From a virus: a stretch of DNA of 64,000 nucleotides. The stretch lies in the IMG/VR virus record IMGVR_UViG_3300018469_000001, positions 1 through 64,000 of that record. One strand, given 5' to 3'. Shown here one piece after another: positions 7,714 through 44,205 of this stretch (position 1 is the stretch's first letter; each line of letters begins with the position of its first letter). The notes beneath the pieces are model-generated. The model was not told where the DNA came from and did not search any database. It saw only the letters and a program-made list of their open reading frames with translations. The position numbers and the translations under genes were made by a program.

Positions 7714-7721
7714 GTCGCAGC

Positions 7722-21940: not shown

Positions 21941-23266
21941 ATGACCGCCACCATAGGCCGCCCAGAAGCCCCGTACGCCTCCAACGCCGCCGCCGCCCCC
22001 GACTCCACCCCCGACCGACGGCAGGCCGCCGTACGGGCGCTCGGCCCGGTCAACGCCCACGATCCGCGGCTGCCCGGACGTGTCGTGCTGCTACGAGCCG
22101 ACGCCGCCGCCCTGCCCCTGCCCGACGAGTCGGTCGACCTGGTCGTCACCTCGCCGCCGTACTGGGCGCAACGCTCGTACACCGACGGCGGGGCCCACTA
22201 CGCCGGGCAGCTCGGCGACGAGCCCAGCCCCGACGCCTACGTCGACCGGCTGGTCGCCTGCACCGCCGAGTGGGCGCGCGTCATCAAACCCGGCGGGTCG
22301 ATCTTCGTGAACCTCGGCGACAAGTACGCCGCCCGCGCCAACGCCGGCCCGTCCCGGGCTGTGTCAGGCCGCCAGGACCGGGCCGAGTGCCGGCCGCCGC
22401 ACCCGCCGGTGACCTCGTTCGCCCGCGACAAGTCGCTGCTCGGCCTGCCATGGCGGTACGCGCTGCGGTGCATCGGCGCCGGATCCGCGCTCGCCGACCC
22501 GTCCGTGGTCAAGCTGCTGCTCGCCGACGTCGCCGCCGGCGTCGTCCCGTTGGCCGTCGCCGAGGACCTGGTCGACACGCTCGCCGCCACCCCGGCAGAC
22601 GGGCCGCGGCTGATCCTGCGCGCCGAAATCCTCTGGTACAAGCGCAACGGGATGCCCGAGTCGGTCACCGACCGGGTACGCCGCGACCACGAACACGTCT
22701 TCCACCTCGTCAAGTCGGCCCGCCACTTCGCCGGCATCGACGCCGTCCGCGAGCCGCTGTCCAGCGCCTCACCCGAGCACGACGCCCGACGGCGAGGCCG
22801 CGGCGACGTCCGCCTGGACCTGGCCAACGGCGGCCGCACCTCCACCAGCAACCCGCTGGGCAAGCTGCCCGGATCCGTGTGGGACATCGTCACCCAACCT
22901 TTGACCCTGCCGCCCCATGTCGCGCACGCCCGGTGCTGCGCCGGCCAGCCGTCGCCGGGCTGCGGCGACGGTCTCGGCCACTACGCCGCGTTCCCGCTGG
23001 AGTTGCCCCGCCGGGCCATAGCCGGCTGGTGCCCGCCCGCCGGGGTCGTTCTGGACCCGTGCGGCGGCACCGGTACCGCCGCGCTGGTCGCCGCGGCGAC
23101 GGGCCGCACCGGCATCAGCGTCGACCGTTCCGCCGACTACACCGACGTCATCGCCCGCTGGCGCACCAACGATCCCGCCCAGGTCGCCCGCGCCTTGGCC
23201 GTACCGGTCCCGGCCGCGCCCGAGCTGACCGGCCAGGCCGACCTGCTCGCCGGGATTCTGCCGTGA
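21941..23266 (+). CDS. DNA methyltransferase (beta-class N4-C/N6-A, SPPY type)
   Basis: Motif IV VDLVVTSPPYW, then C-terminal motif I VLDPCGGTGTAA. RBS agagga. Confidence 0.85.
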   Translation: MTATIGRPEAPYASNAAAAPDSTPDRRQAAVRALGPVNAHDPRLPGRVVLLRADAAALPLPDESVDLVVTSPPYWAQRSYTDGGAHYAGQLGDEPSPDAYVDRLVACTAEWARVIKPGGSIFVNLGDKYAARANAGPSRAVSGRQDRAECRPPHPPVTSFARDKSLLGLPWRYALRCIGAGSALADPSVVKLLLADVAAGVVPLAVAEDLVDTLAATPADGPRLILRAEILWYKRNGMPESVTDRVRRDHEHVFHLVKSARHFAGIDAVREPLSSASPEHDARRRGRGDVRLDLANGGRTSTSNPLGKLPGSVWDIVTQPLTLPPHVAHARCCAGQPSPGCGDGLGHYAAFPLELPRRAIAGWCPPAGVVLDPCGGTGTAALVAAATGRTGISVDRSADYTDVIARWRTNDPAQVARALAVPVPAAPELTGQADLLAGILP

Positions 23267-25029
23267 CCGCCCGGCGTGCCCCCTCTCAGGCAACGTGGGA
23301 GCGCATCGACGCCGCCCGCCGCGAGCAGGCATCCCGGGCGCCCGGGGTGCCCCGCGACACCGGCTCGTGCGAGGGCCCGAACTGCTCGGCGAAGATCAGG
23401 TGGGCGAAGACGGTCGATGGTGGCCGCATGCCGGTCGACTTCACCCCGGACCCGGACGGCCGGCTGATCCGCGTCATGGTCGCTAAGGGCGACTGGCGGA
23501 TCCGTGTCCTGGCCGCCGGGGAACAGCCCGGCGGCGACGTGCACCGGTGGACGTCGCACTACGCCACCTGCCCCGACGCGGCCTGGTTCAAAGCCCGAGG
23601 CCGCGCCGCCACCCCGGCTGTCGGCCCACCTGCCCGCCGCCACCTGCAACCCGCCCCACCGCCGGCCGCGACGGCGCCAGACGTGCTGCTGGTCGTGGAC
23701 GGAAACTCGCTGGCCCACCGGGCGTGGCACGCCTACGAAAAGGCGGGCATGACCGCCCCGGACGGCCGGCCCATCCACGCCGTGTACGGATTCCTCGCGC
23801 TGCTGGCCGGCATTGTGGACAAGACCAGCCCCGACGGGCTGCTGGTCGGCTTCGACGACCGGGCCACGTCGGCCCGCCGCGACCGGTACCCCGAGTACAA
23901 GGCCGGCCGGGCGGAGAAGAACCCCGACCTTTACGCCCAGCTCGACGACATCGGCGCCATCCTCGACGCCATCGGAGTGTCCACAATGGTGCCGGCCGGG
24001 CTGGAAGCCGACGACGTGCTCGGCTCCGCCGCCGCCGCGGCCGAGCAGGCCGGCTGGCGGTGTGTGATCGCCACCAGCGACAAGGACGCGTTCGGGCTGA
24101 TCACCGACACGACCAGTGTGCTGCGGCTGGTGTCCGGGCTGGACAACGCCGAGCAGTACACCCCGGCCTGGCTGGCCGGCCGGTACGGCGGGGTCACCCC
24201 CGCCCAGTGGCTCGACTACGTCGCCCTGGTCGGCGACACCTCCGACAACCTGCCCGGCGTGCACGGCATCGGCCCGAAGACCGCCACGAAGCTGCTCAAC
24301 CACCTCGGATCCGTCGACGCGGCGCTCGCCGACCCGCCCGCCGTACGCGAGGCGGTCGGTACGGCCTACGCGGCCAAGCTGGCCGGCGACGCGGCCCGGG
24401 CGGTGCTGGCCCGCAACCGGGACATCATGGCCATCCGCCGGGACCTGCCCGTCGGCCTCGACGCCTGCCGGCCCACCGTCACCGCCGCGACGGTCGCCGC
24501 CGTACTCAACGGCCGGCACCTACCCAAGCTGGTCGACCGGGTCACTACTGCCCTGTGCCGGCCCGCCGCCCAGCCGACCCCGCCGCGCGGGCGCGGGCAC
24601 CTGGCCGCCGTACCCGACCTGCCGCCGCCGGTCGCCGCGGCCGTGGGGCAGTTGGCGCCGCGGCTGCTCTACCTCAACCCGCTGCCGGCCTGCCCGGACT
24701 GCGGCGAAACCTACGCGGCGTCGATGCCGCTGGCCGCAGCCAGCGGCGGCACCGTCGCCCTGACCGGTGAGCAGGTGTTGATCGCCATGGAACATCCGGC
24801 CGGTGACCTGCTCGCCGTGTCCGTCGGCGGCGGGTGGGCGGTGCGCCGCGTCACTGCCGGCGAGGCCCGGCTCCCGGCCGGCAACCGGCGCCGCGCCCAC
24901 CGGTGCGCCGACTACCCCGGCAAGTGCATGTTCTGCGGCGGCCCGGCCCGCCCCTACCTGTGCGGCCTACGCTGCAACGGGCACGCGCCCGTCGCCATCC
25001 GCCCCGCCGGCCCGGTATCGCCCGAGTGA
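23263..25029 (+). CDS. 5-3 exonuclease / flap endonuclease (PolA N-terminal type) with extra N- and C-terminal Cys modules
   Basis: LLVVDGNSLAHRAWHAY, EADDVLGS, ATSDKD and GDTSDNLPGVHGIGPKTA (H3TH). GTGA overlap with the methylase stop. Upstream part of track ORF 21502.. rejected. Confidence 0.8.
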   Translation: MTARRAPSQATWERIDAARREQASRAPGVPRDTGSCEGPNCSAKIRWAKTVDGGRMPVDFTPDPDGRLIRVMVAKGDWRIRVLAAGEQPGGDVHRWTSHYATCPDAAWFKARGRAATPAVGPPARRHLQPAPPPAATAPDVLLVVDGNSLAHRAWHAYEKAGMTAPDGRPIHAVYGFLALLAGIVDKTSPDGLLVGFDDRATSARRDRYPEYKAGRAEKNPDLYAQLDDIGAILDAIGVSTMVPAGLEADDVLGSAAAAAEQAGWRCVIATSDKDAFGLITDTTSVLRLVSGLDNAEQYTPAWLAGRYGGVTPAQWLDYVALVGDTSDNLPGVHGIGPKTATKLLNHLGSVDAALADPPAVREAVGTAYAAKLAGDAARAVLARNRDIMAIRRDLPVGLDACRPTVTAATVAAVLNGRHLPKLVDRVTTALCRPAAQPTPPRGRGHLAAVPDLPPPVAAAVGQLAPRLLYLNPLPACPDCGETYAASMPLAAASGGTVALTGEQVLIAMEHPAGDLLAVSVGGGWAVRRVTAGEARLPAGNRRRAHRCADYPGKCMFCGGPARPYLCGLRCNGHAPVAIRPAGPVSPE

Positions 25030-25646: not shown

Positions 25647-25689
25647 ACAATGGGGCCCCGCGCACTACAGATGCGCGGGGCCCCATTGT
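25647..25689. terminator. bidirectional hairpin terminator (17-bp perfect stem)
   Basis: acaatggggccccgcgc / gcgcggggccccattgt with a 9-nt loop, between convergent genes. Confidence 0.75.
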
Positions 25690-25698
25690 CGTTTCCGG

Positions 25699-27462
25699 TC
25701 AACATCCGGCGGCCGGCACCGCCTCGGACCGCACCGCGGCCACCACCTCGCCGAACTCCGCGAACCCGTCCGGCCCCGGCACCAGCCGGTCGCTGTCGGA
25801 CAGCACCGCGAACCAGCGGCCGTCCGGCGTCTCCGACAGCACCGCCAGCAGCTCGCCGCCCTCGTCATGCAGGCGCAGCACCCGTGCCCCGCCGCGGGCG
25901 TGCACCATCCGGTACAACGTGCACCCGGGCACCGCGTCGGCCTGCCCCATCATCGACGCGGCGACCCGGCCGGCCACACACCGCAGCTCTTCGTCGTCCG
26001 CCGACGTCGGCAGTGCACTGCCCTCCAGAGCGGACTGCTCGCGGATCATCCGGGCGTTCCAGTGCTCACCTACTCGCTCGCCGCCGCTGGGCGCCGCGTA
26101 GTCCGGCCGCGGCGTGCTCTGCCCGACGGCCATGACGGGGGCGACCGGGTCGGGGTTGTTCGGGCAAGCCTTGCCGCCCTCGACGGGCCCGTGCGGCTCG
26201 CTGATGTGCGCCCCGCAGCCGCGACACTGGTTGTCCTTGTCCCACCCGTCCAGGACGGCGCTCAACGCGTCGCCGGTCGCCGCCAGCTCCCCCGTGAGCG
26301 TGGCCGCGGCCTGCGCGACAACCGCGGCCCGGGTGGCCGGGTCCAGGTCGCCGAATGTCTTACCGACCGGCCACTGTGCCGGCGCGGCGACCGCGTCGCC
26401 CTGGTCGACGGCCTCGGCGACCGGCCCGCCGGCGATGACCGCGGCGTACAGCGCGCGGACCTCGTCGTCGCCCGGCAGCGGCGCCCCGATACGGCCGGCG
26501 GCGAGCAGCTTGGCGCGCATCCTGGCCACGCCGACCCGGCATGTGCATCGATCCCATGTGGCGCGCGAGAAGTGCCCGAGATAGACCTCGCAGTCCTCGG
26601 CGTGAGCGTCGCGCAGGACCGGGTCCTCGTCGCCCTGGCCGACGGGCTCGTCGGTGCGCGGGGCGATCATCTCGGCGACCTGCTCGCCGGTCATCCCCAG
26701 CACGGGCGCCGCGGTGTCCTGGTCGACCACGTCGGTCTGCGCGTTGCCCTGGTCCTCGATCGCGTAACGCTTCTCGAGGTCGTCCAGCATTGCGCTGGTC
26801 TCCGCGAGCAGGTCGGTGGCCGGCGCCGGGTCTGCGGTGCGCTTGGCGAGCAGCCGGACCTCTACGCCCTTCGTGCGGGTCACGCCGTTGGTGCCGCCGG
26901 TGGGAGTGGTGGCCAGGCAGGAAACCTTGGTGCGGGTGGTCTTGATGGCCACGCCCACGCGGTACCGCTGGTGGGAGTGGACGATCACCAGGTCGCCGGG
27001 GGCGATGTCGGCGTTCGGGTCCAGCGTGTCGAACTCGTCCCGGTGGGAGGTGCGGCAGTTGGCCTGCGCGACCGGGGCGTACGTGGCGTACAGCCGGTCG
27101 TTTTCGACGCGGTCCGTCGCGCTCTTGACGGCGCCCTTGGCGGTCGCGGACCGGGCCATCTCGACGCTGTTCTTGACGTACGCGCAGGTGTACCCGCCGC
27201 TGGGCTGGCCGGCCTTGTGGTGGTCGCCGTCGTTGATGAAGAAGGTGCGGCTCAGCGTGTGAAACTCGGCGTCGGCCGGCACCGCGTAGAACGTGGCGGT
27301 GTTGCCGAACACCGGCTCGGCGTCCTTGGCCCGCAACTCCACCGTGGCGTACCGGACGATGTTGATGCGTCGGCCCTGAATCTCGACCGTGTCGATGATC
27401 TCCGGGGCGCTGTGGTTGGGGAATTCGAGGGTCTCGGTGCTGTAGTCGTTTCGCAGTGTCAT
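25699..27462 (-). CDS. large hypothetical protein (587 aa), own promoter and terminator
   Basis: ATG 27462 (MTLRNDYST) with RBS gagagggc. Cys pairs CTC and CRGC..C. No family recognised. The extension to 27711 was rejected because it crosses the promoter and terminator. Confidence 0.65.
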   Translation of the reverse strand: MTLRNDYSTETLEFPNHSAPEIIDTVEIQGRRINIVRYATVELRAKDAEPVFGNTATFYAVPADAEFHTLSRTFFINDGDHHKAGQPSGGYTCAYVKNSVEMARSATAKGAVKSATDRVENDRLYATYAPVAQANCRTSHRDEFDTLDPNADIAPGDLVIVHSHQRYRVGVAIKTTRTKVSCLATTPTGGTNGVTRTKGVEVRLLAKRTADPAPATDLLAETSAMLDDLEKRYAIEDQGNAQTDVVDQDTAAPVLGMTGEQVAEMIAPRTDEPVGQGDEDPVLRDAHAEDCEVYLGHFSRATWDRCTCRVGVARMRAKLLAAGRIGAPLPGDDEVRALYAAVIAGGPVAEAVDQGDAVAAPAQWPVGKTFGDLDPATRAAVVAQAAATLTGELAATGDALSAVLDGWDKDNQCRGCGAHISEPHGPVEGGKACPNNPDPVAPVMAVGQSTPRPDYAAPSGGERVGEHWNARMIREQSALEGSALPTSADDEELRCVAGRVAASMMGQADAVPGCTLYRMVHARGGARVLRLHDEGGELLAVLSETPDGRWFAVLSDSDRLVPGPDGFAEFGEVVAAVRSEAVPAAGC

Positions 27463-27511
27463 GGCTGGCCCTCTCGTCTCGGCGGGGCGACCCGATCGCC
27501 CAACACCCGTG

Positions 27512-27540
27512 ACGTTACACGACCAGCAACAAGACCACAA
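27512..27540 (-). promoter_or_regulatory. conserved promoter-like motif, copy A (TTGTGG-N17-TAACGT)
   Basis: Minus strand reads TTGTGGtcttgttgctggtcgtgTAACGT, about 45 nt upstream of ATG 27462. 25 nt identical to copy B. Confidence 0.55.
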
Positions 27541-27565
27541 CAACGCGGGGCGGTTTGGGCACAGA

Positions 27566-27603
27566 AAAGACCCGAGGCGGGCCGGCACCCACCCCGGGTC
27601 TTT
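27566..27603 (-). terminator. intrinsic terminator of the 28338-27618 cassette
   Basis: On the minus strand, stem AAAGACCCGGGG / CCTCGGGTCTTT (1 mismatch) is followed by TCTTTTCTGT, 15 nt after the stop at 27618. Confidence 0.8.
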
Positions 27604-27617
27604 GCGCGCGGCCGGTC

Positions 27618-28019
27618 TCAGCGATACAAGACCGTCGGGAAGCCGTGCGCCACAAGGAAGTCGTCGAGCGCCTGGTCGACGTCGTTGCTGGACGCCTTGT
27701 CGTCGTGCCACTCGGTGTACGCGGCATGCAGCGCGGTCAGCCCGTCGTCATGGGTGGAGGCCGGCCCGGTGGTCTCCACCTGGCGCACGTTGATGACGAA
27801 ACGGCCGTCCAGCGTCGGCACCCATTGCATCTGGCGCACACTCCACCGCGCCTGCGCCAGCACGGCCGTGGCTGCGGTGACCCAGCCAAACGGATCGGCC
27901 GGGCTGAACTTGAGATCGTGCGCGCCGGTCTCGGTGTAGATGCGGACCTCGCCGGACGCCGGCTCGGCCAGCGCTACGCCGTCCTGGACGACATGGGATG
28001 GGGGTCTGCTGATTGGCAT
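27618..28019 (-). CDS. hypothetical protein (133 aa), second gene of two-gene cassette
   Basis: Clean ORF, GC3-rich. No motif recognised. Confidence 0.6.
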   Translation of the reverse strand: MPISRPPSHVVQDGVALAEPASGEVRIYTETGAHDLKFSPADPFGWVTAATAVLAQARWSVRQMQWVPTLDGRFVINVRQVETTGPASTHDDGLTALHAAYTEWHDDKASSNDVDQALDDFLVAHGFPTVLYR

Positions 28020-28050
28020 GGCGGGCCGCTCCTTCGTCGATGCTGGCGGG

Positions 28051-28338
28051 TCAGAGGTAGCCGAGAACCTTGAGCAGCGGGCCGTGGAGCTGGCCGGCGA
28101 CGTGGGCCATGGTGTCGGCCTGGTCCTGGCTGATGCCGTACACGCCTGGGTCGAGGCTCAGGTCGTGCGGGGCACCGGCGTCGATGATGTCGATCAGCGC
28201 ACCGATCGCGGCCGCGTCCAGGGCGATGATCGCCCGGCGGTTGTCCCGGTCGATCAGTACCCGGACGAACGGGGCGCCGTCGGGACCGGCGTCGACCGGC
28301 GGGACCGGCGTGGCTGTGGCGGGAAGTAGGTCCGACAT
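28051..28338 (-). CDS. hypothetical protein (95 aa), first gene of two-gene cassette
   Basis: ATG 28338 (MSDLLPAT) with RBS gagggggc. The extension to 28494 was rejected because it crosses promoter copy B. Confidence 0.6.
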   Translation of the reverse strand: MSDLLPATATPVPPVDAGPDGAPFVRVLIDRDNRRAIIALDAAAIGALIDIIDAGAPHDLSLDPGVYGISQDQADTMAHVAGQLHGPLLKVLGYL

Positions 28339-28386
28339 CTCGGCCCCCTCGTCCTCGGCGGGCGGCCGTTCCGCCCAGCGCAAGCA

Positions 28387-28416
28387 AACGTAACACGACC
28401 AGCAACAAGACCACAA
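28387..28416 (-). promoter_or_regulatory. conserved promoter-like motif, copy B (TTGTGG-N18-TACGTT)
   Basis: Minus strand reads TTGTGGtcttgttgctggtcgtgtTACGTT, about 50 nt upstream of ATG 28338. Confidence 0.5.
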
Positions 28417-28430: not shown

Positions 28431-28664
28431 TTAGTCCTGTGAGGTGTCCGCGATCAACCCGTTGGCAGCCAACCCCCGCCGCATATCCCGCCACGCCTCC
28501 ATCGCGTCGCGGTACGGCTTACGCCACGCACCCTTGCGTGGCCGCCCCACATCATCGCGCCCCCGCTCGGCCACCGACCGCCCCAAACTCTCCTGCTTGT
28601 CGATGTACCGCCGGACCATATCGACGGACAACCCGACCAGCCGGGCCGCGTCCTCCATCGACAT
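28431..28664 (-). CDS. excisionase/MerR-like HTH DNA-binding protein
   Basis: MSMEDAARLVGLSVDMVRRYIDKQ is a typical N-terminal HTH. An alternative start lies at 28715. The rest of the 593-aa antisense track ORF was rejected. Confidence 0.6.
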   Translation of the reverse strand: MSMEDAARLVGLSVDMVRRYIDKQESLGRSVAERGRDDVGRPRKGAWRKPYRDAMEAWRDMRRGLAANGLIADTSQD

Positions 28665-28752
28665 CGTCGGGCGGTCCCGATCACCAGCACCGTCCACACG
28701 CCACCCCTGATCCATTCGGGAGTACCTAGCAAACCTCGGAAGCGACACGATC

Positions 28753-30279
28753 ATGCCAGTCAGCCGGAAACCCGACCGCCAAGACGCGGCCGCATCCTGC
28801 AAACCTGGCAAACCTTGCACGGATCGTGTCACACTGGCGGGCATGCTCACAGCCGGACCGGACCACCGGACCACCACCGCGGACCACCGGACCATCCCGG
28901 ACCGGACCGCCCCGGCGCGACCCCATGCACCGGACCGGTCCGGTCCGCCCCCACCGGTCCGCCCCACCGGACCGCCCCACCGGACCGCCCCACCGGACCG
29001 CGTTGAGGAACGGACCGGACCGCGCCGTCGCCCCGGACCGGTCCGCACACCCGGACCGGTCCGCCCCCTGCCCGCCGGCGGCGGACTGGCCCTGTTCGTG
29101 CTCATCGGCACCGGCGCCGCCATCTGCGTGACCTCCTTCCTGTTCTCCTTCGAGAACGTCAAGCACCTCGCCATCAGCATCGGCATCCACAAAGACATCG
29201 CCCCCTGGATCTCCCCCACCGTCGACCTGTCCGTCGTCGGGTTCATGGTCGCCGTCCAGTGGCTCGCCCTGGCCGGCGTCACCTCCGCCCAGCTCCTACC
29301 CGCCCGCCGCGCCCTGGTCTTCGCCGGCGCCGTGATGCTGCTGCTCAACAGCGCACCGTCGGCCATGAACGCCGTCGCCGACCAGGACGTCAAAGCCGCA
29401 GGCCGCGCCCTGGTCGAGGCCGCCGTGCCGTGCCTGCTCATCATCTGGACCCACGTTGGCCCGAAGGTCATCCGGCTGTTCATCGAGGTCCGCGAGCAGC
29501 ACCGCGCCGCCGTACACGCCGTCCAGGCCGCCGCTGAGCAGGCCGCCCACGCGGAACAGCTCGCCGCCGAGCTCGCCGACCGGGCCGCCGCCGACTGGGC
29601 CGACCGGGCCGCCGCGGCGGAACGCCAGGCCGCCGCGGACCGCGAAGACGCGCAGCGCCGCGAGCTGCTCGCCGCCGCCGCCCGCCGCGAGGAAGCCGAC
29701 CGGGCGGACCGGACCGCCCGCGAGCAGGCGGACCGGTCCGCCCGCATCGAGTTGGCCCGGGCCGAAGCCGCACGCGCCGAAGCGGACCGGACCGCCGCAG
29801 CCGCCGAGGCGGACCGGGCCCGCGCCGAGGCGGACCGGGCTGCCGCGGACCGGGCCGCCGCAGAGGCGGACCGGCTCGCCGCCGAAGCACTGCGGACCGA
29901 AGCCGCGGCCGCGGCCCGGCCCGCCACCCGCCGCACCGGAACGCGGACCGGACCGCCGCACCGGAACGCGGACCGGCCCGGTCCGGTCCGGCCGCCGGCG
30001 GACAACGTCGCGCCGATCGCCGACGGAGCCACCGGCGCCCGCGAAGCCCTCGACAAGATCCGCCGCGAGTATCCGCGGTTCTCGTCGTGGGCCGAGCTGC
30101 GCACCGCGATGGAGGGCAGGGCGCCGTCGCTCAACGACGTCGCCCGCACCACCGGCATGGGCAAGGCACGCATCAGCCGGGCGCTCCAGCACGCCGAAGA
30201 CCTGGGCGTCACCTACCGCGACCCCGGCGACGACGAAACCAACCCCGACAACACCCCGGCGGTAACTGTCAGCAACTAG
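28753..30279 (+). CDS. DUF2637-like membrane protein with ADR-repeat coiled coil and C-terminal HTH
   Basis: TM core LALFVLIGTGAAICVTSFLFSFENVKHLA..APWISPTVDLSVVGFMVAV is typical of DUF2637 in actinomycete conjugative elements. Start uncertain (28753 or 28843). The first ~100 codons coincide with the repeat array. Confidence 0.65.
   Translation: MPVSRKPDRQDAAASCKPGKPCTDRVTLAGMLTAGPDHRTTTADHRTIPDRTAPARPHAPDRSGPPPPVRPTGPPHRTAPPDRVEERTGPRRRPGPVRTPGPVRPLPAGGGLALFVLIGTGAAICVTSFLFSFENVKHLAISIGIHKDIAPWISPTVDLSVVGFMVAVQWLALAGVTSAQLLPARRALVFAGAVMLLLNSAPSAMNAVADQDVKAAGRALVEAAVPCLLIIWTHVGPKVIRLFIEVREQHRAAVHAVQAAAEQAAHAEQLAAELADRAAADWADRAAAAERQAAADREDAQRRELLAAAARREEADRADRTAREQADRSARIELARAEAARAEADRTAAAAEADRARAEADRAAADRAAAEADRLAAEALRTEAAAAARPATRRTGTRTGPPHRNADRPGPVRPPADNVAPIADGATGAREALDKIRREYPRFSSWAELRTAMEGRAPSLNDVARTTGMGKARISRALQHAEDLGVTYRDPGDDETNPDNTPAVTVSN
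28855..29062. repeat. dense GG(A/T)CC / CGG(A/T)CCG repeat array (candidate clt / translocase recognition sites)
   Basis: 20 GGACC/GGTCC pentamers in 208 bp, in both orientations, including CCGGACCGGTCCGG palindromes. A 13-bp unit gccccaccggacc occurs x3 (plus one inverted-core copy) at 28947-29000. Confidence 0.7.
29704..29991. repeat. second GCGGACCGG repeat cluster (also encodes the ADR protein repeat)
   Basis: About 10 copies of GCGGACCG(G/A) plus GGTCCGGTCCGG at 29980-29991. They coincide with the EADRA..ADR coiled-coil coding region. Confidence 0.5.
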
Positions 30280-30432: not shown

Positions 30433-31767
30433 ATGACGCTCAACACCACGCCGGCCACAGCACCACCGCCCGCACCCGCCCCACCAGCAGACAAGCCGGC
30501 CGCCGAGAAGAAGCCCAGCCGCAACCCGGTGGTCCACGTACGGCCGCTGGCCGCCGCAGCCGGCAACGCCGCCACCATCGGCGGCGCCACCGCCGTACAC
30601 GCCGGCGGACCGTGGGCGCTCGCCGCGATCGCAGCCGTCGCCGCCGTCGGCGCAGGCGCGGCGGCCCGCACCCGCGTGCGGTCCAACCGGGCCGCCTCCG
30701 GCTCAGCGTTCCGGACCACCCGGACCACCACCAGCGGCGGCCGCCGCACCGGCATGCCCCACCTCGGGCTCGGCCGCAGCACGTCGGGCCGGGCCGCATC
30801 AGCCGGCATCCCGGCCGGCCGCCGCGGCGGCACCGCGGCGACTGCCGGCCGACGGACCGGCGGCGCCCGGACCGGTCTCGGCCGCGGCGGATCCGGCCTG
30901 TCCGGTCTGCGTGGCCGCGCGCCCGGGCTCGGCGGCAAATCCGGCAGCGGCAAGCTCACCCCGGGCAAGGTCGCCCGCGCCCGCCGGCTGCTCGCCGACC
31001 GGAAAGCACGCGACGCCGCCCGGCGGGCCCGGCACAAGCTGCGCGGCGAAACCGGCCAGCGGCGCCAGGCCGCAGCCGACCAGGCCCGCGCCCGCCGCGA
31101 CGCCCAGCGGGAACACCGCCGCACCAACCCCGGCTGGTGGCGACGCTGGTGGCGGGCCCGGACCGGCCGCACCACCAAACCCGACGACCCGGCCACCACC
31201 ACGCCCGGCAACAAGACGGGCCGGGAACCGGCCGTCGGCGACACCGCCCGACGCGGCACCACCGACCCGGGCCGCCGCACACCGCGGCGCCCCGCCCAGC
31301 CACCCGCAGGCCACCGGCCCGCAGGTTCCCGCCCCGCCACACCCACCGGCCCGGCCATCCCGGCCGCCGCCGCATCAGGAGGACCCGTGTCCGCAGGACC
31401 GTCGGTGATGCGGGCGCTGCTCGCCCTCGCCGAAGAGATGAAAGCCGTTGCCATCAAGCACGAACGACCCGAAGGCGTCATGCAGCTCATCCAGGAATAC
31501 GAAATCCTGCCCGAGGTGCTCGACGTGCTCACCGAAGCGTGGACGGCTTGGCACACCCGCGCCACCGACCCGCACGACGGTGACCCGCTCAACCCGGCCG
31601 TGATGGATCTGCTCGCCGAAATCGCCAAAACCCAGCGGGTCGCCGCGCACGCCGCAGCCGAAGTCGCCCCGCTGGCCCGCCGGCTGGAGGCCGCCCGCAT
31701 CGAGGCGCTACGCGACCGCCGCAACCGGATGTGGGACCTGCGCGCAAACGACGGGTACGCGGCATGA
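30433..31767 (+). CDS. Spd-like hypothetical protein (Arg/Gly-rich centre, helical C-terminus)
   Basis: ATG 30433 with RBS aggaagg. One TM-like segment (PWALAAIAAVAAVGAGAAA). Lies immediately upstream of, and coupled to, the translocase. Confidence 0.6.
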   Translation: MTLNTTPATAPPPAPAPPADKPAAEKKPSRNPVVHVRPLAAAAGNAATIGGATAVHAGGPWALAAIAAVAAVGAGAAARTRVRSNRAASGSAFRTTRTTTSGGRRTGMPHLGLGRSTSGRAASAGIPAGRRGGTAATAGRRTGGARTGLGRGGSGLSGLRGRAPGLGGKSGSGKLTPGKVARARRLLADRKARDAARRARHKLRGETGQRRQAAADQARARRDAQREHRRTNPGWWRRWWRARTGRTTKPDDPATTTPGNKTGREPAVGDTARRGTTDPGRRTPRRPAQPPAGHRPAGSRPATPTGPAIPAAAASGGPVSAGPSVMRALLALAEEMKAVAIKHERPEGVMQLIQEYEILPEVLDVLTEAWTAWHTRATDPHDGDPLNPAVMDLLAEIAKTQRVAAHAAAEVAPLARRLEAARIEALRDRRNRMWDLRANDGYAA

Positions 31768-34079
31768 GCGGGCGGCGCCGGCCCCGGGTGGACCTGTCGT
31801 TCGGCCCCGGACATGGGCCGGTCTCCGGGGTACTCAACGCGGCCGGCGCTGCCCTGGGCGCCACCATGCTGCTAGACCTCACCGGCGGGTCAGGGGTGTA
31901 CGGGTTCGCCGCGGCGTTCCTGCTCGCCTGCGCAGGCGCGGGCGTGGCCCTCTGGTACGACCAGCCCGACCGGGTCGTGGCCTACCGGGCCGGCTGCTGG
32001 CTGGCCGCCGGCGTCTGGTCGGCGTGGACCCTGTCCGGATTCCAGGGCATCCCGCTGCCGGCCACCGCCATGCGGTTGGGCGGCTGGTTCTGGTCGCCGG
32101 GCACCCCGTGGGCGGCACGCCCGGCCTACGGCCTGGCCGCCGGCGCCGCCGTCGCCGCCGCGGTCGGCTGGGCCATCGAGCGGGCCGAAAAACGCGCCGC
32201 CGCCGAGGCCGAACGACTGGCCAAACAGACCGAAGCCCAGCGGCTCGCCGCCGAAGAAGCTGCCCTGGCCGCCCGCACCCCCGCCAACGAGCAGGAAGCC
32301 ATCGCCTTCACGGTGGGCCCGGTGCTGCGCCGCATCACCCGCAAGGCGATCCAGATCCTCAACGTCGAGCTGTGGGAGCCCAACTACGGGCACACCCTGG
32401 ACTGCGAGCTGCCCGACGACGGCACCACACTCGGCGACATCAAGCCGTACGAAGAGGCGATCGCGTCCGCGCTGGACCTGGGCGAGGGTTGCGGGGTAGA
32501 GATCGTCCGGCCGGAAGGGCTCGGCCGCCGCGCCGTCCACATCAAGATCACGACGGTGTCGGCGCTCGGCCAGGACATTCCGCTGCCCGCCGACTACAGC
32601 CCGGAGACCATCGAAAACCCGGTCGCGTTGGGGGTCGAAACCGACCGCAAGGTCGCCGAGGTGCCGTTGCGATTCGAGTCCGCCGTCCTGGTCGGGCAGA
32701 CCGACAGCGGCAAGTCCAACCAGCTCAACGTCCTGGTCGCCGGCCTGGCCCGGTGCACCGACGTGCTGCTGGCCGGCATCGACCTGTCCGGCCAGGGCCG
32801 ATTCCTGCGCCCCTGGCAGCGTCCCTACTACGAGGGACGCGCCCCCGCCCCCGTGTTTGCCCTGACCGCGGTCAACGACGTCCAGGCCGCCCTGCTGGTC
32901 CAGGCGCTCATCCAGATCGTCGACGGCCGCACCGCCGACTACGCCCCGCTGATGCACGCCGAGAAAGAAGACAAGATCGTCCCCCGGCCGACGTTGCCGC
33001 AAATCGTGCTGATCATCGATGAGTTCGGCAAGCTGTCCGAGCGGGTCAAAGAGATGGTCATCACCTTGACCGACACCGGCCGCGGCGCCGCCGTCCGCGT
33101 CGTGTCCTGCGCGCTGGAGGCCACCGCCGGCTACATCCCCCGAAAGATCATCACGCAGTCGCGGGTCCGTATCGGCATGCGCGTCCAGGACGAAACCCAG
33201 CTCCAATATTTGTTCGACACCACCTGGCGCCGCGGCCGATTCGACCCGGCGTCGATGCCCTGGAAGGGCAGCGGCCTCTACACCGAGGGCACCCGATTCC
33301 CCGACCGCTTCAAGGGCTACCGGGTCAACCCCGAGCAGGTCGACCAGATCGCTGTCGCGGTCGGCCCCCTGCGCCCCCCGCTCGACGAGCCGTCACTGCG
33401 CCGCGGCGACGACGTCACCCTCACCGTCAAGGGCGACGACGGGCTGCGCACCGAACGCGACTTCGTCGGCGTGCTTACCGCCAACGAAGCCATGACCTTC
33501 CCGCTGATCTTCCCCGACGGCGCCGGCCCCTCAGCCGCCGCCGCCACCAGCACCGGAGAGGACCCCGCGATGTCCCAACAGCAGCAGCCTGCCAGCACCG
33601 GCCCGGCCGCCGACCTCGGCGGCGCCGTACGCGACCTGAACAGCTCGCTCGAGCGCGCCCGCAAGGCCGCCGACGCAGCCGAGAAGGCCGTCGCCGGCGG
33701 CGACGGCGACCAGGGCGACGACCAGCAGCCCGGCCCCGCCGACGACCCCGAGCTGCCAAGCCTCAACGCCCTGTGGGCGTCCCCGGCCGAAGAACCAGTG
33801 CGCCCCAAGGACCAGGCCCCGGCGGCCGCGCCGCGCCGTCCGGCCGTACCGCCGCGCCGCCGCGTCCAGCAGCTCATCGCCGCGGCCGCCGACACCGGTA
33901 TCGGGCCCGGCGACATCCACGCCGCGCTCAAGGCCGAGGGCTACCCGACCTCGCTGACCACGGTCAACAACTGGCTGCGGGAGTGGGCCGCGCAGGGCAT
34001 CGTCGTCCAGCCCGCGGGGGAGCGCACCCCGTGGTTTCCCGGCCCGCAGATGGGCGAGCACGGGCAGGCAGCGGCATGA
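31764..34079 (+). CDS. traB: TraB/TraSA-type FtsK/SpoIIIE-family dsDNA translocase
   Basis: N-terminal hydrophobic helices, Walker A VGQTDSGKSN, Walker B IVLIIDEFGK, and a C-terminal wHTH-like tail (IHAALKAEGYPTSLTTVNNWLREWAAQGIV). ATGA overlap with the upstream stop. Confidence 0.85.
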   Translation: MSGRRRPRVDLSFGPGHGPVSGVLNAAGAALGATMLLDLTGGSGVYGFAAAFLLACAGAGVALWYDQPDRVVAYRAGCWLAAGVWSAWTLSGFQGIPLPATAMRLGGWFWSPGTPWAARPAYGLAAGAAVAAAVGWAIERAEKRAAAEAERLAKQTEAQRLAAEEAALAARTPANEQEAIAFTVGPVLRRITRKAIQILNVELWEPNYGHTLDCELPDDGTTLGDIKPYEEAIASALDLGEGCGVEIVRPEGLGRRAVHIKITTVSALGQDIPLPADYSPETIENPVALGVETDRKVAEVPLRFESAVLVGQTDSGKSNQLNVLVAGLARCTDVLLAGIDLSGQGRFLRPWQRPYYEGRAPAPVFALTAVNDVQAALLVQALIQIVDGRTADYAPLMHAEKEDKIVPRPTLPQIVLIIDEFGKLSERVKEMVITLTDTGRGAAVRVVSCALEATAGYIPRKIITQSRVRIGMRVQDETQLQYLFDTTWRRGRFDPASMPWKGSGLYTEGTRFPDRFKGYRVNPEQVDQIAVAVGPLRPPLDEPSLRRGDDVTLTVKGDDGLRTERDFVGVLTANEAMTFPLIFPDGAGPSAAAATSTGEDPAMSQQQQPASTGPAADLGGAVRDLNSSLERARKAADAAEKAVAGGDGDQGDDQQPGPADDPELPSLNALWASPAEEPVRPKDQAPAAAPRRPAVPPRRRVQQLIAAAADTGIGPGDIHAALKAEGYPTSLTTVNNWLREWAAQGIVVQPAGERTPWFPGPQMGEHGQAAA

Positions 34080-35554: not shown

Positions 35555-35583
35555 TTGTGGTCTTGTTGGTGGTCGCGTAACGT
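35555..35583 (+). promoter_or_regulatory. conserved promoter-like motif, copy C (TTGTGG-N17-TAACGT), rightward
   Basis: TTGTGGtcttgttggtggtcgcgTAACGT lies 49 nt upstream of ATG 35632, followed by the palindrome ggtgggtggcc/ggccacccacc in the leader. Confidence 0.6.
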
Positions 35584-37693: not shown

Positions 37694-38044
37694 CTACTCC
37701 ACCCGCCGATCCCCCTGGTCTAGTCCACCCTCGTCGTGGTCGGCGAGCCACGACCCGATCACCGACTCCGGGAAACCCCTTGCCCGCATCGCTGCGGCCT
37801 GCGCGGCGGCGGCGACCTGCTCCCGGTGCTTACGGTCTTCCGCCCGCCGGGCCCGCCGCTCGGCCCACCATCGCTCTTCCGCCCGGCGTGCCCGCGGACT
37901 GAACAGCAGCAGGTTCGCCGCCCACGCCACCGCGACCACAACCACCCCGGCCGCCTCCGCCGGATACAGCACGGCCAGCGCACCGAGCGCCACCACCACC
38001 AGCAACGCCACCGAGGCGGTCAGCACCGTGTCCAGCCCCCACAC
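37694..38044 (-). CDS. membrane protein
   Basis: Two N-terminal TM helices followed by an Arg/Glu-rich tail. Confidence 0.5.
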   Translation of the reverse strand: MWGLDTVLTASVALLVVVALGALAVLYPAEAAGVVVVAVAWAANLLLFSPRARRAEERWWAERRARRAEDRKHREQVAAAAQAAAMRARGFPESVIGSWLADHDEGGLDQGDRRVE

Positions 38045-38048
38045 AGCG

Positions 38049-38762
38049 TCAACACCGACCCGCGTGATCGGGGTGCCGGTACCGGCCGTACGACCGCTGC
38101 CGCTGGACCAGCTTCCCGTCCGCGACGAGCTGGTCCAGCACCTCGATCAGCGTGCTGTTGCGTACCGGCTGCCCCAGCTCGGCGAGCCGACCGGACAGCG
38201 CATGCTTGGAGATGCCGTCCGTGCCGGACAGCAACGCCTGCTCGACGATGATCAGCTCGGCGACGTCCCGGTCCTCGCCGGCCGGGCGTTGTGGCGGTCC
38301 GCCAAGCTCGAAGGGGGTCTCGGCCGCCGCCGACGCCGCCGAGAAGTCCGCCCGCCCCGCCGGCGTCTGGCCGGCCCGCGGCTCGCCGAAGCAGTCCGCC
38401 GCGGCTGTTCCCAGCCCGTACCGGCCGTGCCCGTCGTAACCCCACGACGCCCGCACCGGGACCTCGTCGACCCGGTCGGCGAGGTCCGCCCCGTACTCGC
38501 CGTGGGAGCGTTCCCGGTGGGCGGCCTGCGCCGCCCGATGTTCGATCATTTCGCGTCGACCCCGCTGTCTGCCATGCAGGTAGGCCAGCCTCGCCAACCC
38601 CGCCGTGGCTACCCCAGCGCCGAGCAGGAAGAACGTGGCCCCACCCGTGTCCCCGCCGGCTGTGGCCAACAACGCAACGGCCACCGTCAGGAAAAGCACC
38701 GTCACCGCGGACAGCTCAGCTACCAGTACCGACCAGTCGGCCGGATGAATCCGCCGTCGCAT
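38049..38762 (-). CDS. membrane-anchored protein with C-terminal winged-helix-like domain
   Basis: Two N-terminal TM helices. C-terminal GISKHALSGRLAELGQPVRNSTLIEVLDQLVADGKLV. Confidence 0.55.
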   Translation of the reverse strand: MRRRIHPADWSVLVAELSAVTVLFLTVAVALLATAGGDTGGATFFLLGAGVATAGLARLAYLHGRQRGRREMIEHRAAQAAHRERSHGEYGADLADRVDEVPVRASWGYDGHGRYGLGTAAADCFGEPRAGQTPAGRADFSAASAAAETPFELGGPPQRPAGEDRDVAELIIVEQALLSGTDGISKHALSGRLAELGQPVRNSTLIEVLDQLVADGKLVQRQRSYGRYRHPDHAGRC

Positions 38763-38793
38763 GTTCGTCTCCTCAGTCCAGAAAAAGGGGTGA

Positions 38794-39042
38794 TCACTGC
38801 GCGATCAGGTCGGGTGCCCACCAGGCCAGGACCGCCCACCCGGCCAGCCCGCCGAGCAGCAGCACCGCCGCGACGAGCAGCACCCGCTTGACCGCGGCCA
38901 CCACCCGCCACCACCACCACACGAACCGGTCGACGGCGATGAGCACGGCGTCGCGTACCGCCTGAGACAGCAGGGTGGCCAGCATCCCGCCGACCGCACC
39001 GACCGCGATCAGAGCCCAACTGCCGGCGTCGATGGTGCCCAT
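38794..39042 (-). CDS. small membrane protein
   Basis: Three hydrophobic segments and a WWWW motif. Confidence 0.5.
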   Translation of the reverse strand: MGTIDAGSWALIAVGAVGGMLATLLSQAVRDAVLIAVDRFVWWWWRVVAAVKRVLLVAAVLLLGGLAGWAVLAWWAPDLIAQ

Positions 39043-39145
39043 AAGTCAGCCTCCACGCGTCTCGGTGTCCGCGGGTAGGTGCGTCCAACACCCGACCCGA
39101 CCACCCGCCATGGTATGCGACCGGCAACTAGCAGACAACAGCCTG

Positions 39146-40189: not shown

Positions 40190-40580
40190 AACCGGGTGAC
40201 CAGGAACATGCGCTGGCGCGATGACCAGGCAGGAAACGCCGGCGACCAGCGCACGGCAACAGGACCACAGCAGGACAGGCCTCCGCGGCTCGGCCCGGGG
40301 CTCTCACGCGCATTCCACCCACCCGCCCGGGAAGCCTCTCCCGGCCAGGCGCGGCGCCCGCGACCCCACCCACCCCCGTACGCGGGGACAGGCCGCCACC
40401 GGCGCCGGGGAAAACCCGGGCGTGGGCATGTGTCGCCACTACCACACCACACCCGGCCGGCCACGCGTGCAAGGTTTGCCAGATTTTCGGCCCGACGTTC
40501 AACCCCGACCAGTCGTGATCGGCCGACGGACGGGCCGACCCATCGACAGCGGCTCGCGCACCCGCACCGTCCCGGCGTAC

Positions 40581-40648
40581 CGTCCGCACCGGCGCGGCCG
40601 AGTTGTGGACGGCTCGGCCGCGCCCCTGACGTCCACAACCGTCCACAC
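40581..40648. promoter_or_regulatory. operator-like CGTCC(A/G)CA repeats upstream of the DUF4352-like gene
   Basis: GTTGTGGACG (40602-40611) is the inverted repeat of CGTCCACAAC (40630-40639). Further direct copies are CGTCCACAC (40640-40648) and CGTCCGCAC (40581-40589). Confidence 0.4.
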
Positions 40649-40664
40649 CCTCAGGAGGACCACC

Positions 40665-41315
40665 ATGTACCACCAGGACCCCCGCAACGTCGGCGCCGGC
40701 CAGCCCGGCCCCAGCTACGGCTACGACCGGCCGGCCGACTACCCGCAGCCCCCGCAGCCACCGCGCAAGAAGTCCCGCGGCTGGCTGATCGCCGCCGTCG
40801 TCGTCGGCGCGATCCTGGTGCTGTGCGCCGCCGGCGCCGCAATCGTCGTCGGCACCGCCGCCGAGCAGGCCGCCAACGTCATCCCCGACGGCACCGCCAC
40901 CCCCCGCGAGGCCACCGTCGGCATCGGCCAGCCGGCCCGCGACGGCAAGTTCGAGTTCACCGTCACCAAGGCCAGATGCGGCAAGACCAGTTACGGCAAC
41001 AAGTACGCCGGCGCGCAGGCCGCCGGCCTGTACTGCGAGATCCGGCTCACCGTCGCCAACATCGGCGACCAGGCGCAGCTCTTCGCCCAGTCCGAGCAGA
41101 AGGCGTACGACACCGCCGGCCGGCAGTACTCCACCGACCTGACCGCCGCCATCTACGCCAACCAGGGCAGCGACGTGTGGCTCAAAGAGGTCAACCCCGG
41201 CAACAAGATCAGCGGCCTGTTGATCTTCGACGTGGCCAAGGGCACCCTGCTCGACCGCGTCGAACTGCACGACTCGATCTTCTCCGGGGGAGTGGTCGTC
41301 AAGCTCAGGGGGTGA
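40665..41315 (+). CDS. DUF4352-like membrane-anchored protein
   Basis: ATG 40665 with RBS caggagga. Pro-rich N-terminus, one TM helix, then GQPARDGKFEFTVTKARCG..LYCEIRLTVANIG..ISGLLIFDV. Confidence 0.65.
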   Translation: MYHQDPRNVGAGQPGPSYGYDRPADYPQPPQPPRKKSRGWLIAAVVVGAILVLCAAGAAIVVGTAAEQAANVIPDGTATPREATVGIGQPARDGKFEFTVTKARCGKTSYGNKYAGAQAAGLYCEIRLTVANIGDQAQLFAQSEQKAYDTAGRQYSTDLTAAIYANQGSDVWLKEVNPGNKISGLLIFDVAKGTLLDRVELHDSIFSGGVVVKLRG

Positions 41316-41435: not shown

Positions 41436-42881
41436 TCAGCGAACGGCGGGCATGACCAGCGTCATCGCATCAGCCGGCCGGTACGCCGCCACCGCGCCGC
41501 CAGCTCCGACCGGCTCCGGGACCGCCGGCCCGGCGCCGAGCGCCACCTCAACCGTGGCCCGCGTGCCCCAGCCGGTACGCCAGCACGTCACCACACCCCA
41601 CCAGCGTGCCGCCCGCAACACCGTCGCCGCGAACAGGCCAGCCACCGGCGCCAACAACCAGACCCCCCACTGATACCAGGCCGACTGATCCGACCGGCGG
41701 ATCGTCATGTACCGCAGGCACATCCCGTAGGAGATGGCCACCGGCACCGCCAGCAGCCACACGACCAGCTCCCACGTCGGCGACACCGCCAGCCCGGCCA
41801 CCACCACCCCGCCGAACAACGCCGTCGACACCCCGGTACCAACCCACCGCTGCGTATGCAGCCACCACGCCGGCCGGCCCATCGACAGGAACCGGGCCCG
41901 CCACAGCGACCGGATCGTCGACCCGCGCATCCACCGCAGGTACATCCGCCAGAAATGGCCGAACCGCTGCGGCATCAGCGAGAACGCCAACGCCGACGGC
42001 TGCTGAACCGTCCGCCCCCGCGTCATCGCATACAAGGTGAGCAGCGAGTCATCGGAGAACGGCACCCGCCGCCCCCCGAACGTCTCGGTCAGGTAGCCGA
42101 CGACGTTGTCGCGCATCACCTCAGCCCGGTACAAGGCGATCGGCCCCGAGTTCACCCACACCGACCCGCCCAGCACCGACAGGGCACCCCGGTCGACGAG
42201 CTGCCCGGTCACAAACCACAGATCGGTGATCCGCGTCAGCAGGTTGCCGCGCACGTTGGCCGCCATCACCACCCCGGCCACCGACTGCACCCGATGATCA
42301 GACATCGGCTTGAGTAGCTCCGCCAACGCCGCGGCGTCCGAAATGGTGTCCGAGTCGACCGTCCACAGGAAGTCGGCGTCGCGCACCCACGCCAACGCCT
42401 GCACCTGGGCGTGGCGCTTGCCCGCGTTGGGCTGCCGCACCCACACCGGCCGCACGCCGGCCGCCGCCGCCGCCCGGTAGAACCAGGCCCGCACCCCGTC
42501 GTAGGCGGCCACATCGGGCGACCCGTCATCAACCACCACGATCGACTGCGGCCGCCGGTCCTGCCCGATCATCGACTCCAGACAGGCCCGCAACGCCGCC
42601 GGGTCCTCGTTGTACGCCGGCCCCAGCGCCGCCACGTTCGCCTCATCGAGCCGCGCCTGCCACCGCCGACCCACCTCGACCGGCCGATTCAGGTAGGAGA
42701 AGCCGAGCTGCGCGACCAGCACACCCCACAGCAGCACATACAGGGCCACAAACCGGTGCCCCCGCGCCTCGGTGAGCAACCCGTGCGCGGCCAGCCCGTG
42801 ATGAGCCGACCACACCGCCACCGCCACCAGCACCGCCAACGCAGCCACCAACACCCGGCCACGCACCAGCCGGGCGCTCAC
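41436..42881 (-). CDS. processive family-2 glycosyltransferase (hyaluronan/chitin/cellulose-synthase-like)
   Basis: IVVVDDGS, TVDSDT, a GPIALYR.. block and YLRWMRGS (xxRW motif), flanked by TM helices. GTG 42881 overlaps the stop of the upstream small gene. Longer start rejected. Confidence 0.8.
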   Translation of the reverse strand: MSARLVRGRVLVAALAVLVAVAVWSAHHGLAAHGLLTEARGHRFVALYVLLWGVLVAQLGFSYLNRPVEVGRRWQARLDEANVAALGPAYNEDPAALRACLESMIGQDRRPQSIVVVDDGSPDVAAYDGVRAWFYRAAAAAGVRPVWVRQPNAGKRHAQVQALAWVRDADFLWTVDSDTISDAAALAELLKPMSDHRVQSVAGVVMAANVRGNLLTRITDLWFVTGQLVDRGALSVLGGSVWVNSGPIALYRAEVMRDNVVGYLTETFGGRRVPFSDDSLLTLYAMTRGRTVQQPSALAFSLMPQRFGHFWRMYLRWMRGSTIRSLWRARFLSMGRPAWWLHTQRWVGTGVSTALFGGVVVAGLAVSPTWELVVWLLAVPVAISYGMCLRYMTIRRSDQSAWYQWGVWLLAPVAGLFAATVLRAARWWGVVTCWRTGWGTRATVEVALGAGPAVPEPVGAGGAVAAYRPADAMTLVMPAVR

Positions 42882-43974: not shown

Positions 43975-44205
43975 ATGAGCGGCGGCGAGCAGAAGGTCCG
44001 GCGCGCTGTGGCGTTGGCCGTACGGGACTGCCTGATCGGCGATCCCACGCTGACCGAGGAACAGATCATGGTGGCGGTGATCGCCGAATTGGAAATCCGC
44101 GCGTACCACCCGGGCGCGGCGACGCCGACGTCGGTGGCTGTGGCCGAAAACCTCGCGTCCGTCCTGGACGGACGGCTGAGGGCGGGCGCCGAGGCCGACG
44201 CATGA
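43975..44205 (+). CDS. hypothetical small protein upstream of and coupled to integrase
   Basis: ATG 43975 with RBS ggagg. ATGA overlap with the int start. Confidence 0.45.
   Translation: MSGGEQKVRRAVALAVRDCLIGDPTLTEEQIMVAVIAELEIRAYHPGAATPTSVAVAENLASVLDGRLRAGAEADA

Follow-up and report, generated by a model that had tools for sequence, protein, structure and literature searches.

The viral record IMGVR_UViG_3300018469_000001 was analyzed over its positions 1 to 64,000 (the window, 64,000 nt). Between positions 25,699 and 28,416 it carries two leftward gene cassettes, of which cassette 1 holds the small genes g95 and g133 and cassette 2 the single gene g587. Comparison with related contigs suggests that this locus is a slot for accessory genes, hypervariable in content, in a temperate actinophage of the Micromonospora type. 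Downstream of a conserved helix-turn-helix (HTH) gene, g133 and g587 are recurrent members of the locus, and g95 looks like cargo that can be swapped and not like a partner that g133 requires. Both cassettes are headed by a promoter-leader module that is phage-wide and not brought in with the cargo. With regard to function, the favored reading is a tentative one: the cassettes would form one regulon under the host principal sigma factor, and g587 and probably g133 would be phage-side conflict proteins of a binding type, plausibly acting early after entry.

The module is built around a 29-nt motif, TTGTGGTCTTGTTGCTGGTCGTGTWACGT, which is found exactly or near-exactly at 27512-27540(-) and 28388-28416(-), and with two mismatches at 35555-35583(+). 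Matches were obtained in 0 of 100 shuffles. The promoter copies that the initial annotation had placed before both cassettes are hereby supported. In module A (27463-27540, minus strand) the -35 element TTGTGG (27535-27540) and the -10 element TAACGT (27512-27517) are followed by a 49-nt leader, in which a small hairpin (GGGCGA/TCGCCC) precedes CCGAGACGAGAGGG-N6-ATG. Module B (28339-28416, minus strand) has TTGTGG at 28411-28416, TTACGT at 28388-28393 and likewise a 49-nt leader, which ends with CCGAGGACGAGGGGG-N6-ATG. The two modules are identical at 77 of 104 positions, and the distance from motif to ATG is exactly 49 nt in both. Neither was called by a generic sigma-70 scan, because TTGTGG scores only 3/6; promoter function is therefore deduced from the TTGNNN-17 nt-TANNNT geometry. 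The general architecture consists of a -35 TTGYGG, a 17-nt spacer, a -10 TAACGT (TANNNT type) and a leader of ~50 nt, usually with a short GC hairpin. In 12 of 17 copies, the GGAG ribosome-binding site is directly preceded by CCGAGAC. The leader hairpin is not claimed as a structured RNA element, as the individual z-scores are mostly insignificant (mean z of -0.65 over 16 leaders).

At least seven copies of the module are present in the window, and six of the seven head leftward units. Further copies occur in the related contigs L001 (three; a metagenome contig), L002 (five; Micromonospora), L004 (two) and L018 (one). Apart from A and B, the copy at 8189-8217(-), with five mismatches, heads a leftward four-gene unit (5824-8183), and the copy at 60981-61009(-), with four, heads the single leftward gene 60621-60941. 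Two degenerate copies, at 39110-39138(-) with nine mismatches and at 62336-62364(-) with eight, head the leftward genes 37694-39042 and the single leftward gene 61874-62272, respectively. The sole rightward copy, at 35555-35583(+), heads the genes at 35.6-37.6 kb. The module thereby fronts all obvious leftward units of the window except the HTH gene and a family-2 glycosyltransferase (GT2) gene, plus one rightward operon. To speak of g587 as having its own regulation, as was done initially, is consequently misleading: its promoter is common to at least seven units. The first gene behind the copy at 39110-39138 (38794-39042, minus strand) encodes a very hydrophobic, Trp-rich protein of 82 amino acids (aa) with a grand average of hydropathy of 1.24, which is probably membrane-inserted.

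It is proposed that a host RNA polymerase of the sigma-HrdB type would read all copies of the module, by which the cassettes would become one regulon. A phage-specific factor may modulate this regulon, because the spacer is more alike within than between genomes. Spacer identity amounts to 0.76 within genomes and 0.58 between them, compared to 0.79 and 0.81 for the hexamers. The within-genome likeness of the spacer would fit either a trans-acting factor particular to each genome or concerted evolution. An operator for a repressor was also considered for the spacer and set aside, the within-genome identity being only suggestive and also explained by concerted evolution.

Scanning for the motif gave no match in the viral contig collection and one in the genome contig collection, on an Arthrobacter contig. 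The latter is probably a chance match, because the sequence downstream of it has neither the conserved leader nor the CCGAGAC element. The seven matches in the metagenome contig collection were all low-GC chance matches, and no further relatives were found. A hairpin and a TTGNNN-17-TAGNGT promoter likewise precede the g587-like genes of L009 and L010, which are more distant. The g587-like gene of L008 is located at the contig end, and only the -10 element and the leader are visible. A stand-alone transcription unit thus appears typical of the g587-like family. The promoter-leader module marks co-regulated uncharacterized genes and slots of cargo exchange, and it offers a sequence handle for accessory genes in the poorly studied Micromonospora-type phages.

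In cassette 1, g95 (28051-28338, minus strand; 95 aa) is the first gene and g133 (27618-28019, minus strand; 133 aa) the second. They are separated by a gap of 31 nt, and the pair is bounded by module B and the hairpin T1. Cassette 2 consists of g587 (25699-27462, minus strand; 587 aa). All three show the coding signature of this genome, with a GC content at third codon positions (GC3) of 0.87-0.93 and at second positions (GC2) of ~0.5, and have Shine-Dalgarno-like sequences. On this basis they are taken as real genes, as they had been initially. The earlier assignment of T1 (27566-27603, minus strand) as a canonical intrinsic terminator of cassette 1 is likewise upheld as a prediction by its 17-bp stem, 4-nt loop and UUUUCUGU tail (U-tract), with z = -3.7. 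T2 (25647-25689, no strand assigned) had been described as a terminator with a 17-bp stem. The strong hairpin was confirmed, as a perfect stem of 19 bp with z = -7.2. The terminator part was not, the minus strand being devoid of a U-tract and the plus strand offering only GUUUCC. T2 is therefore better regarded as a strong hairpin than as a canonical intrinsic terminator. It sits between convergent genes, and a plus-strand membrane-protein gene terminates at 25624. Overall, the cassettes are two separately bounded leftward units that oppose the flanking rightward operons. With an integrase present in the window, this agrees with the initial description of autonomous leftward units in a temperate phage. 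The GC content is 0.68-0.70 in cassette 1, which is 5-8 points below the flanks (0.76-0.77), and 0.74-0.75 in g587. All three proteins are acidic, with isoelectric points (pI) of 4.4-5.0; that of g95 is 4.4.

The variability of the slot becomes apparent from its relatives. In L001 the HTH gene is followed by g138 (46% identical to g133), g636 (the g587 orthologue) and a 394-aa gene, and this set is convergent with the exonuclease operon. In L004 the order is HTH, a 57-aa membrane protein, promoter, a remnant mini-open reading frame (ORF) with a hairpin, a g133 homologue, terminator, promoter and a 701-aa g587 homologue. L018 has a DUF2637 gene divergent from the HTH gene, then a promoter, an unrelated gene of 112 aa and a homologue of g133. 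L002 carries five promoter modules in 5 kb, in both orientations, with five unrelated genes that include a 990-aa g587 homologue. The place of g95 is thus empty in L001, occupied by a remnant in L004 and by the unrelated 112-aa gene in L018; g133 is kept in all three. Between the promoter module and the g133 homologue of L004 (883-1063), a Shine-Dalgarno site, a mini-ORF of 13-21 codons, a strong hairpin and a second CCGAGAC-GGAG site can be seen. This segment resembles what the deletion of a cargo gene would leave behind, and it lies where g95 stands in the window.

The acidic g133 protein is a member of a small family, as yet undescribed, whose conserved motif at the C-terminus is LHAAYTEWHD..ASSNDVDQALDDFL..GFPTVLYR. 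Its homologues are P0004, P0005 and the products of L001 9425-9841 and L004 1064-1561. In L019 a further homologue is part of a different small-gene operon without g95. For g95, a search of 5.8 billion proteins returned only g95 itself. The statement of the initial annotation that none of the three proteins falls in a recognizable family holds: g95, g133 and g587 had no match in Pfam, PADLOC, NCBIfam or the PDB sequences and no significant match in PHROGs (best E 0.076). Nucleotide and translated searches (blastn and tblastn) with the region or g587 against phage and plasmid collections gave no match either.

From gene size only, g95 and g133 had also been called a toxin/antitoxin-like pair. 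A type II toxin-antitoxin module would be in line with two small, adjacent and co-oriented genes, 31 nt apart, that share one promoter and one terminator. Yet g95 is an orphan, and g133 homologues occur without it in L001 (there directly after the promoter), L004, L018 and L019. Pfam, PADLOC and NCBIfam yielded no toxin or antitoxin model for either protein. The two are acidic, and no DNA-binding model was matched in Pfam or NCBIfam. An AlphaFold2 model of g133, with a predicted local distance difference test score (pLDDT) of 65 and hence of low confidence, was compared to the PDB with Foldseek and gave noise only (template modeling score, TM, of 0.2-0.3), with no toxin or antitoxin fold. As the pair is not conserved, the toxin-antitoxin idea is effectively refuted and can be considered extremely improbable. 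It is also very unlikely that g95 is non-functional, either as a chance ORF or as a decaying remnant in a long g133 leader. Its orphan status would suit this idea, as would the equivalent space of L004, which holds just the remnant mini-ORF and a hairpin. The coding-type GC3/GC2 pattern, however, extends across the entire ORF, a Shine-Dalgarno-like sequence is present, and the ATG lies 49 nt from the motif, in the same register as in module A.

An exhaustive HMMER search with g587 returned 31 relatives, which map to separate segments of the protein. Judging from these matches, at least four modules are joined in frame to form the mosaic of g587, and each of them is also found apart. The N-domain (aa 1-220; 26803-27462, minus strand) has ~22 homologues, including internal copies in giant proteins. 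In the AlphaFold2 model of g587, the pLDDT exceeds 90 over aa 10-210; confidence is low elsewhere, but reaches 80-87 over aa 530-580. The N-domain is accordingly modeled as a new, confidently folded mixed beta/alpha domain with SH3/Tudor-like barrels. The initial annotation had suggested structure searches as a check. For g133 these yielded no meaningful match, and for g587 Foldseek retrieved two uncharacterized phage proteins of ~230 aa from BFVD (E 1.5e-6 and 5.7e-6). In the PDB only weak matches of the Agenet/Tudor/KOW/SH3 type were obtained for g587 (E >=7e-3), which are taken as a fold hint only, and a profile of 22 N-domain sequences had no match there. A 'host shutoff protein' from a Bacillus phage, also retrieved from BFVD (E 5.6e-4, TMt 0.15), was rejected as an unreliable match.

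The second module, Z1 (aa 278-314; 26521-26631, minus strand), contains the His/Cys motif H..DC.V.LGH.S.A.W.RCTC and probably binds zinc; the module is present in free-standing proteins of 48-203 aa as well (P0030-P0032, P0035). Module M2 (aa 348-432; 26167-26421, minus strand) is characterized by WP.GKTFG.L... and was found in P0028, P0033, P0034 and P0036. A CxxC...H...C motif lies at aa 413-433. The C-domain (aa 485-584; 25711-26010, minus strand) stands alone in P0027 and is also found within giant proteins. In total g587 has 12 cysteines, including those of this motif and of H-x3-C-x5-H-x8-C-x-C (aa 287-308), in keeping with the several Cys pairs noted initially. Many relatives of g587 have an extra C-terminal module, HVTEI...WRCVQGDA...RWEHH.D..GEWWEPV, which is a separate gene in L001 and absent from the window.

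Mosaicism is also visible in the nucleotide sequence. Compared to the L001 orthologue, g587 is 64-79% identical over the segments for aa 1-120 and 519-587 and 98-100% identical over that for aa 268-357, and the two genes differ by three in-frame indels of 27, 108 and 41 aa. The stretch 26400-26660 (~270 nt within g587) is 98-100% identical to L001, and the flanking gene parts 64-88%. Such a stretch inside a more divergent gene points to recent intragenic recombination.

The giant relatives of g587 are five proteins of 1,964-2,820 aa with the N-terminal start WNPAHHPRDARGRF. In P0010, P0011 and P0014 the N- and C-domains of g587 are both present, in differing order. On three independent large contigs, the giant genes follow closely on the large terminase gene and a gene of 660-750 aa. 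These large actinophage contigs are L005 (2900-11362), L006 (6001-13092) and L007 (6001-13506), with giant proteins of 2,363-2,820 aa. The 660-750-aa gene product was tested in L005 only and there matches a portal protein (E 4e-105). A Pfam scan of four of the giant proteins gave no match; by PHROGs, a likeness to a head-maturation protease was found for the P0011 C-terminus (E 1e-9). For polyvalent proteins, it has been argued that packaging and delivery take place together with the DNA, and single domains of such proteins are also found by themselves in phages (Iyer et al. 2017, PMC5512222). That g587 shares its domains with giants of the packaging region points to the offensive side of the phage more than to prophage defense. 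The N-domain family, which has no relative in Pfam, NCBIfam or the PDB, joins small free-standing proteins to these packaging-region giants. If the giant proteins are delivered on infection, the family would be a candidate early effector.

In the favored reading, g587 would act through binding and not through catalysis, in view of its tandem SH3/Tudor-like barrels, its two putative zinc knuckles and the lack of a conserved catalytic motif. It may, probably together with g133, be made soon after entry and serve for host takeover or for disarming the cell. The placement on the phage side follows from domains common to presumably virion-delivered proteins of the polyvalent type, from the intragenic mosaicism and from fast protein evolution. 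Several points weigh against it. A leftward orientation against the lytic operons, with terminators as bounds, is classic for morons. The g587 gene itself does not adjoin packaging genes, and no known effector domain was found in it by Pfam or NCBIfam. The packaging of the giant proteins is presumed, and g133 and g95 have nothing in common with them. The early timing of expression is pure inference. In mycobacteriophage Adephagia, of the genes downstream of the repeated ESAS (extended start-associated sequence) promoters, only some are expressed in lysogens (PMC11373665); a shared promoter can therefore not separate early from lysogenic expression. Finally, the pairwise ratio of nonsynonymous to synonymous substitution rates (dN/dS), which is 0.87 for the g587 N-domain versus 0.22-0.37 for the neighboring methylase, exonuclease and FtsK-like genes, comes from single pairs in a genome of extreme GC3, in which DUF2637 (0.61) and g335 (0.58) are also raised.

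Morons of temperate phages have their own promoter and terminator and are inserted between conserved genes. That the cassettes are prophage-expressed morons, which would provide the lysogen with superinfection exclusion or anti-phage defense and in which g587 would be a new sensor or effector, is rather unlikely. It would be consistent with units that are bounded by promoters and terminators and oppose the flanking operons, with a variable locus in a temperate phage (integrase) and with the GC content of cassette 1, 5-8 points under that of the flanks. Fast evolution and mosaicism suit defense genes equally well, and the Adephagia genes that are expressed in lysogens from repeated promoters include a HicA toxin (PMC11373665). 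Defense-profile searches, which the initial annotation had recommended, nevertheless gave no PADLOC match for g95, g133 and g587, nor for 10 other proteins from units of this promoter family (0/13). The searches revealed no enzymatic, NTPase, nuclease or membrane domain typical of defense effectors either. The promoter is phage-intrinsic and also fronts multi-gene units, and the sharing of g587 domains with the packaging-region giants is an offensive context. Functional support for the initial defense proposal was hence not found, and the attractive toxin-antitoxin or defense label is removed as unsupported.

Returning to phage-side conflict proteins, a more specific and rather speculative form of that idea can be formulated. 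The N- and C-domains of g587 could be undescribed counter-defense or host-takeover modules, which would be deployed as capsid-packaged giants in large actinophages and as free-standing mosaics from an ESAS-like early regulon in their temperate relatives. This is not considered probable. If true, the slot would be an anti-defense hotspot in which inhibitors could be mined, with g95, g133 and the 112-aa gene of L018 as starting points.

The wider context of the cassettes is that of a phage genome with a GC content of ~72% and chiefly rightward transcription. The window encodes an endolysin (3992-5173), a topoisomerase-like protein, RecT, an N4/N6 DNA methylase, a 5'-3' exonuclease (23263-25029), a tyrosine integrase (44202-45314) and a large terminase subunit (62799 to the window end). 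Integrase, endolysin and terminase together identify it as a temperate actinophage. Among the relatives of the target genes, only one has a named source, Micromonospora sp. NPDC049230. No Rfam or tRNA match was obtained in the window.

Directly upstream of cassette 1 and on the same strand, HTH77 (28431-28664, minus strand) encodes a small basic HTH protein (pI 9.8) with sub-threshold HTH_29 and MerR matches. It is divergent from a DUF2637-like gene, and its homologues in L001, L002, L004 and L018 occupy the equivalent position, by which it appears to be a conserved anchor of the locus. The DUF2637-like protein (a sub-threshold match) and an FtsK-like protein (31764-34079, below the Pfam threshold) are found to the right of the cassettes. 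They had been named a conjugation block. This is not established, as FtsK-like homologues with 30% identity are annotated as DNA translocases in ordinary actinophages (Thermobifida phage P1312, Streptomyces phages Hiyaa/Spocter) and in phage ZL12. Streptomyces phage Galactica is a further carrier of a 30%-identical homologue. The DUF2637-like gene contains a long low-complexity Ala/Asp/Arg/Glu region of the ADRAAAEADR type (29480-29900) with several direct-repeat families. At least two copies of the motif GGTTTGCYAGGT are present in the divergent HTH77/DUF2637 intergenic region (28700-28830), and the motif is kept in L004 (120-260). The small HTH protein may use these repeats as its operator, in an arrangement of the kil/kor type before the FtsK-like operon.

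This neighborhood allows another explanation, which is quite doubtful: HTH77, g133 and g587 could be an accessory or regulatory set of the adjacent DNA-handling modules, with a role in transfer or segregation, replication control or kil/kor-like regulation. The set is divergent from the DUF2637-like/FtsK-like genes and convergent with the RecT-methylase-exonuclease operon. The synteny of HTH, small gene(s) and g587-like gene between the DUF2637/FtsK-like genes and the exonuclease is kept in the window, L001 and L002, and partly in L004 and L018. SH3/Tudor-like barrels (here a weak match) and zinc knuckles are common nucleic-acid-binding folds, and the GGTTTGCYAGGT repeats in the divergent intergenic region would fit as well. 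Other N-domain proteins, however, are encoded in unrelated neighborhoods (L008-L010) or in the terminase-portal region. Gain and loss of modules and a near-neutral dN/dS would be unusual in core replication or transfer factors, and the cassettes carry their own promoters and terminators, outside those operons.

Two further regions of the window deserve mention. Just upstream of the integrase region (43975-45314) lie a gene for a DUF4352 protein (40221-41315) and the leftward gene for the family-2 glycosyltransferase (41436-42881). By position and family, lysogenic conversion or superinfection exclusion would be ascribed to these two genes sooner than to the cassettes. At 47285-48143, two adjoining genes (145 and 143 aa) have a 73-nt segment in common at 81% identity (47548-47620 and 47969-48041), which suggests a tandem gene duplication.

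Among known systems, the closest counterparts of the promoter-leader module are the ESAS and start-associated sequence (SAS) modules of Cluster K mycobacteriophages (Pope et al. 2011, PMC3203893; Adephagia, PMC11373665), Adephagia having seven ESAS promoters. In both cases a conserved intergenic module occurs in about seven copies per genome of an actinobacterial temperate phage. SigA-like -35 and -10 hexamers are spaced 17-18 nt apart (seven copies with a 17-nt spacer in the window), and a conserved sequence spans the Shine-Dalgarno site just upstream of the ATG. Both also front non-structural genes of unrelated families, with genome-specific variants across related phages. The sequences, in contrast, are unrelated: the window has TTGYGG-N17-TAACGT and CCGAGAC-GGAG, whereas ESAS/SAS is defined by a 13-bp SAS consensus, GGGATAGGAGCCC, and 17-bp ESAS inverted repeats. 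In the window the inverted repeat lies downstream of the -10 element, is variable in sequence and is marginally more stable than shuffles (mean z -0.65). The host genus differs as well. The module of the window is thus best described, as far as its sequence tells, as an analogue of ESAS/SAS and not as a member.

As in polyvalent proteins (PMC5512222), g587 is composed of multiple modules (at least four independently matching segments compared to 2-15 domains), which are shuffled and also occur solo, and its giant relatives (1,964-2,820 aa) adjoin terminase and portal genes. Unlike them, g587 is small and encoded between the 5'-3' exonuclease operon and the HTH/DUF2637-like genes. It contains no known early-effector domain (ArdC, methylase, helicase, peptidase, MuF) according to Pfam and NCBIfam. 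Four of the giants also lack a Pfam match, and the only such resemblance is that of the protease-like P0011 C-terminus by PHROGs. The likeness to type II toxin-antitoxin systems is that of two small genes predicted to be co-transcribed; it ends there, as the pair is not conserved and no toxin/antitoxin family or DNA-binding antitoxin model was matched. With morons, the cassettes have in common that they are flanked by a putative promoter and terminator and oppose their neighbors. In variability and base composition the likeness is mixed: g95 varies and cassette 1 has a slightly lower GC content, the value for g587 being 0.74-0.75. The cassettes differ in that their promoter is phage-wide instead of imported with the gene, and in that g133 and g587 are conserved members of the locus. 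The gene content of the cassettes is uncharacterized, and their organization is of a known general kind, that of accessory cassettes under a repeated promoter module.

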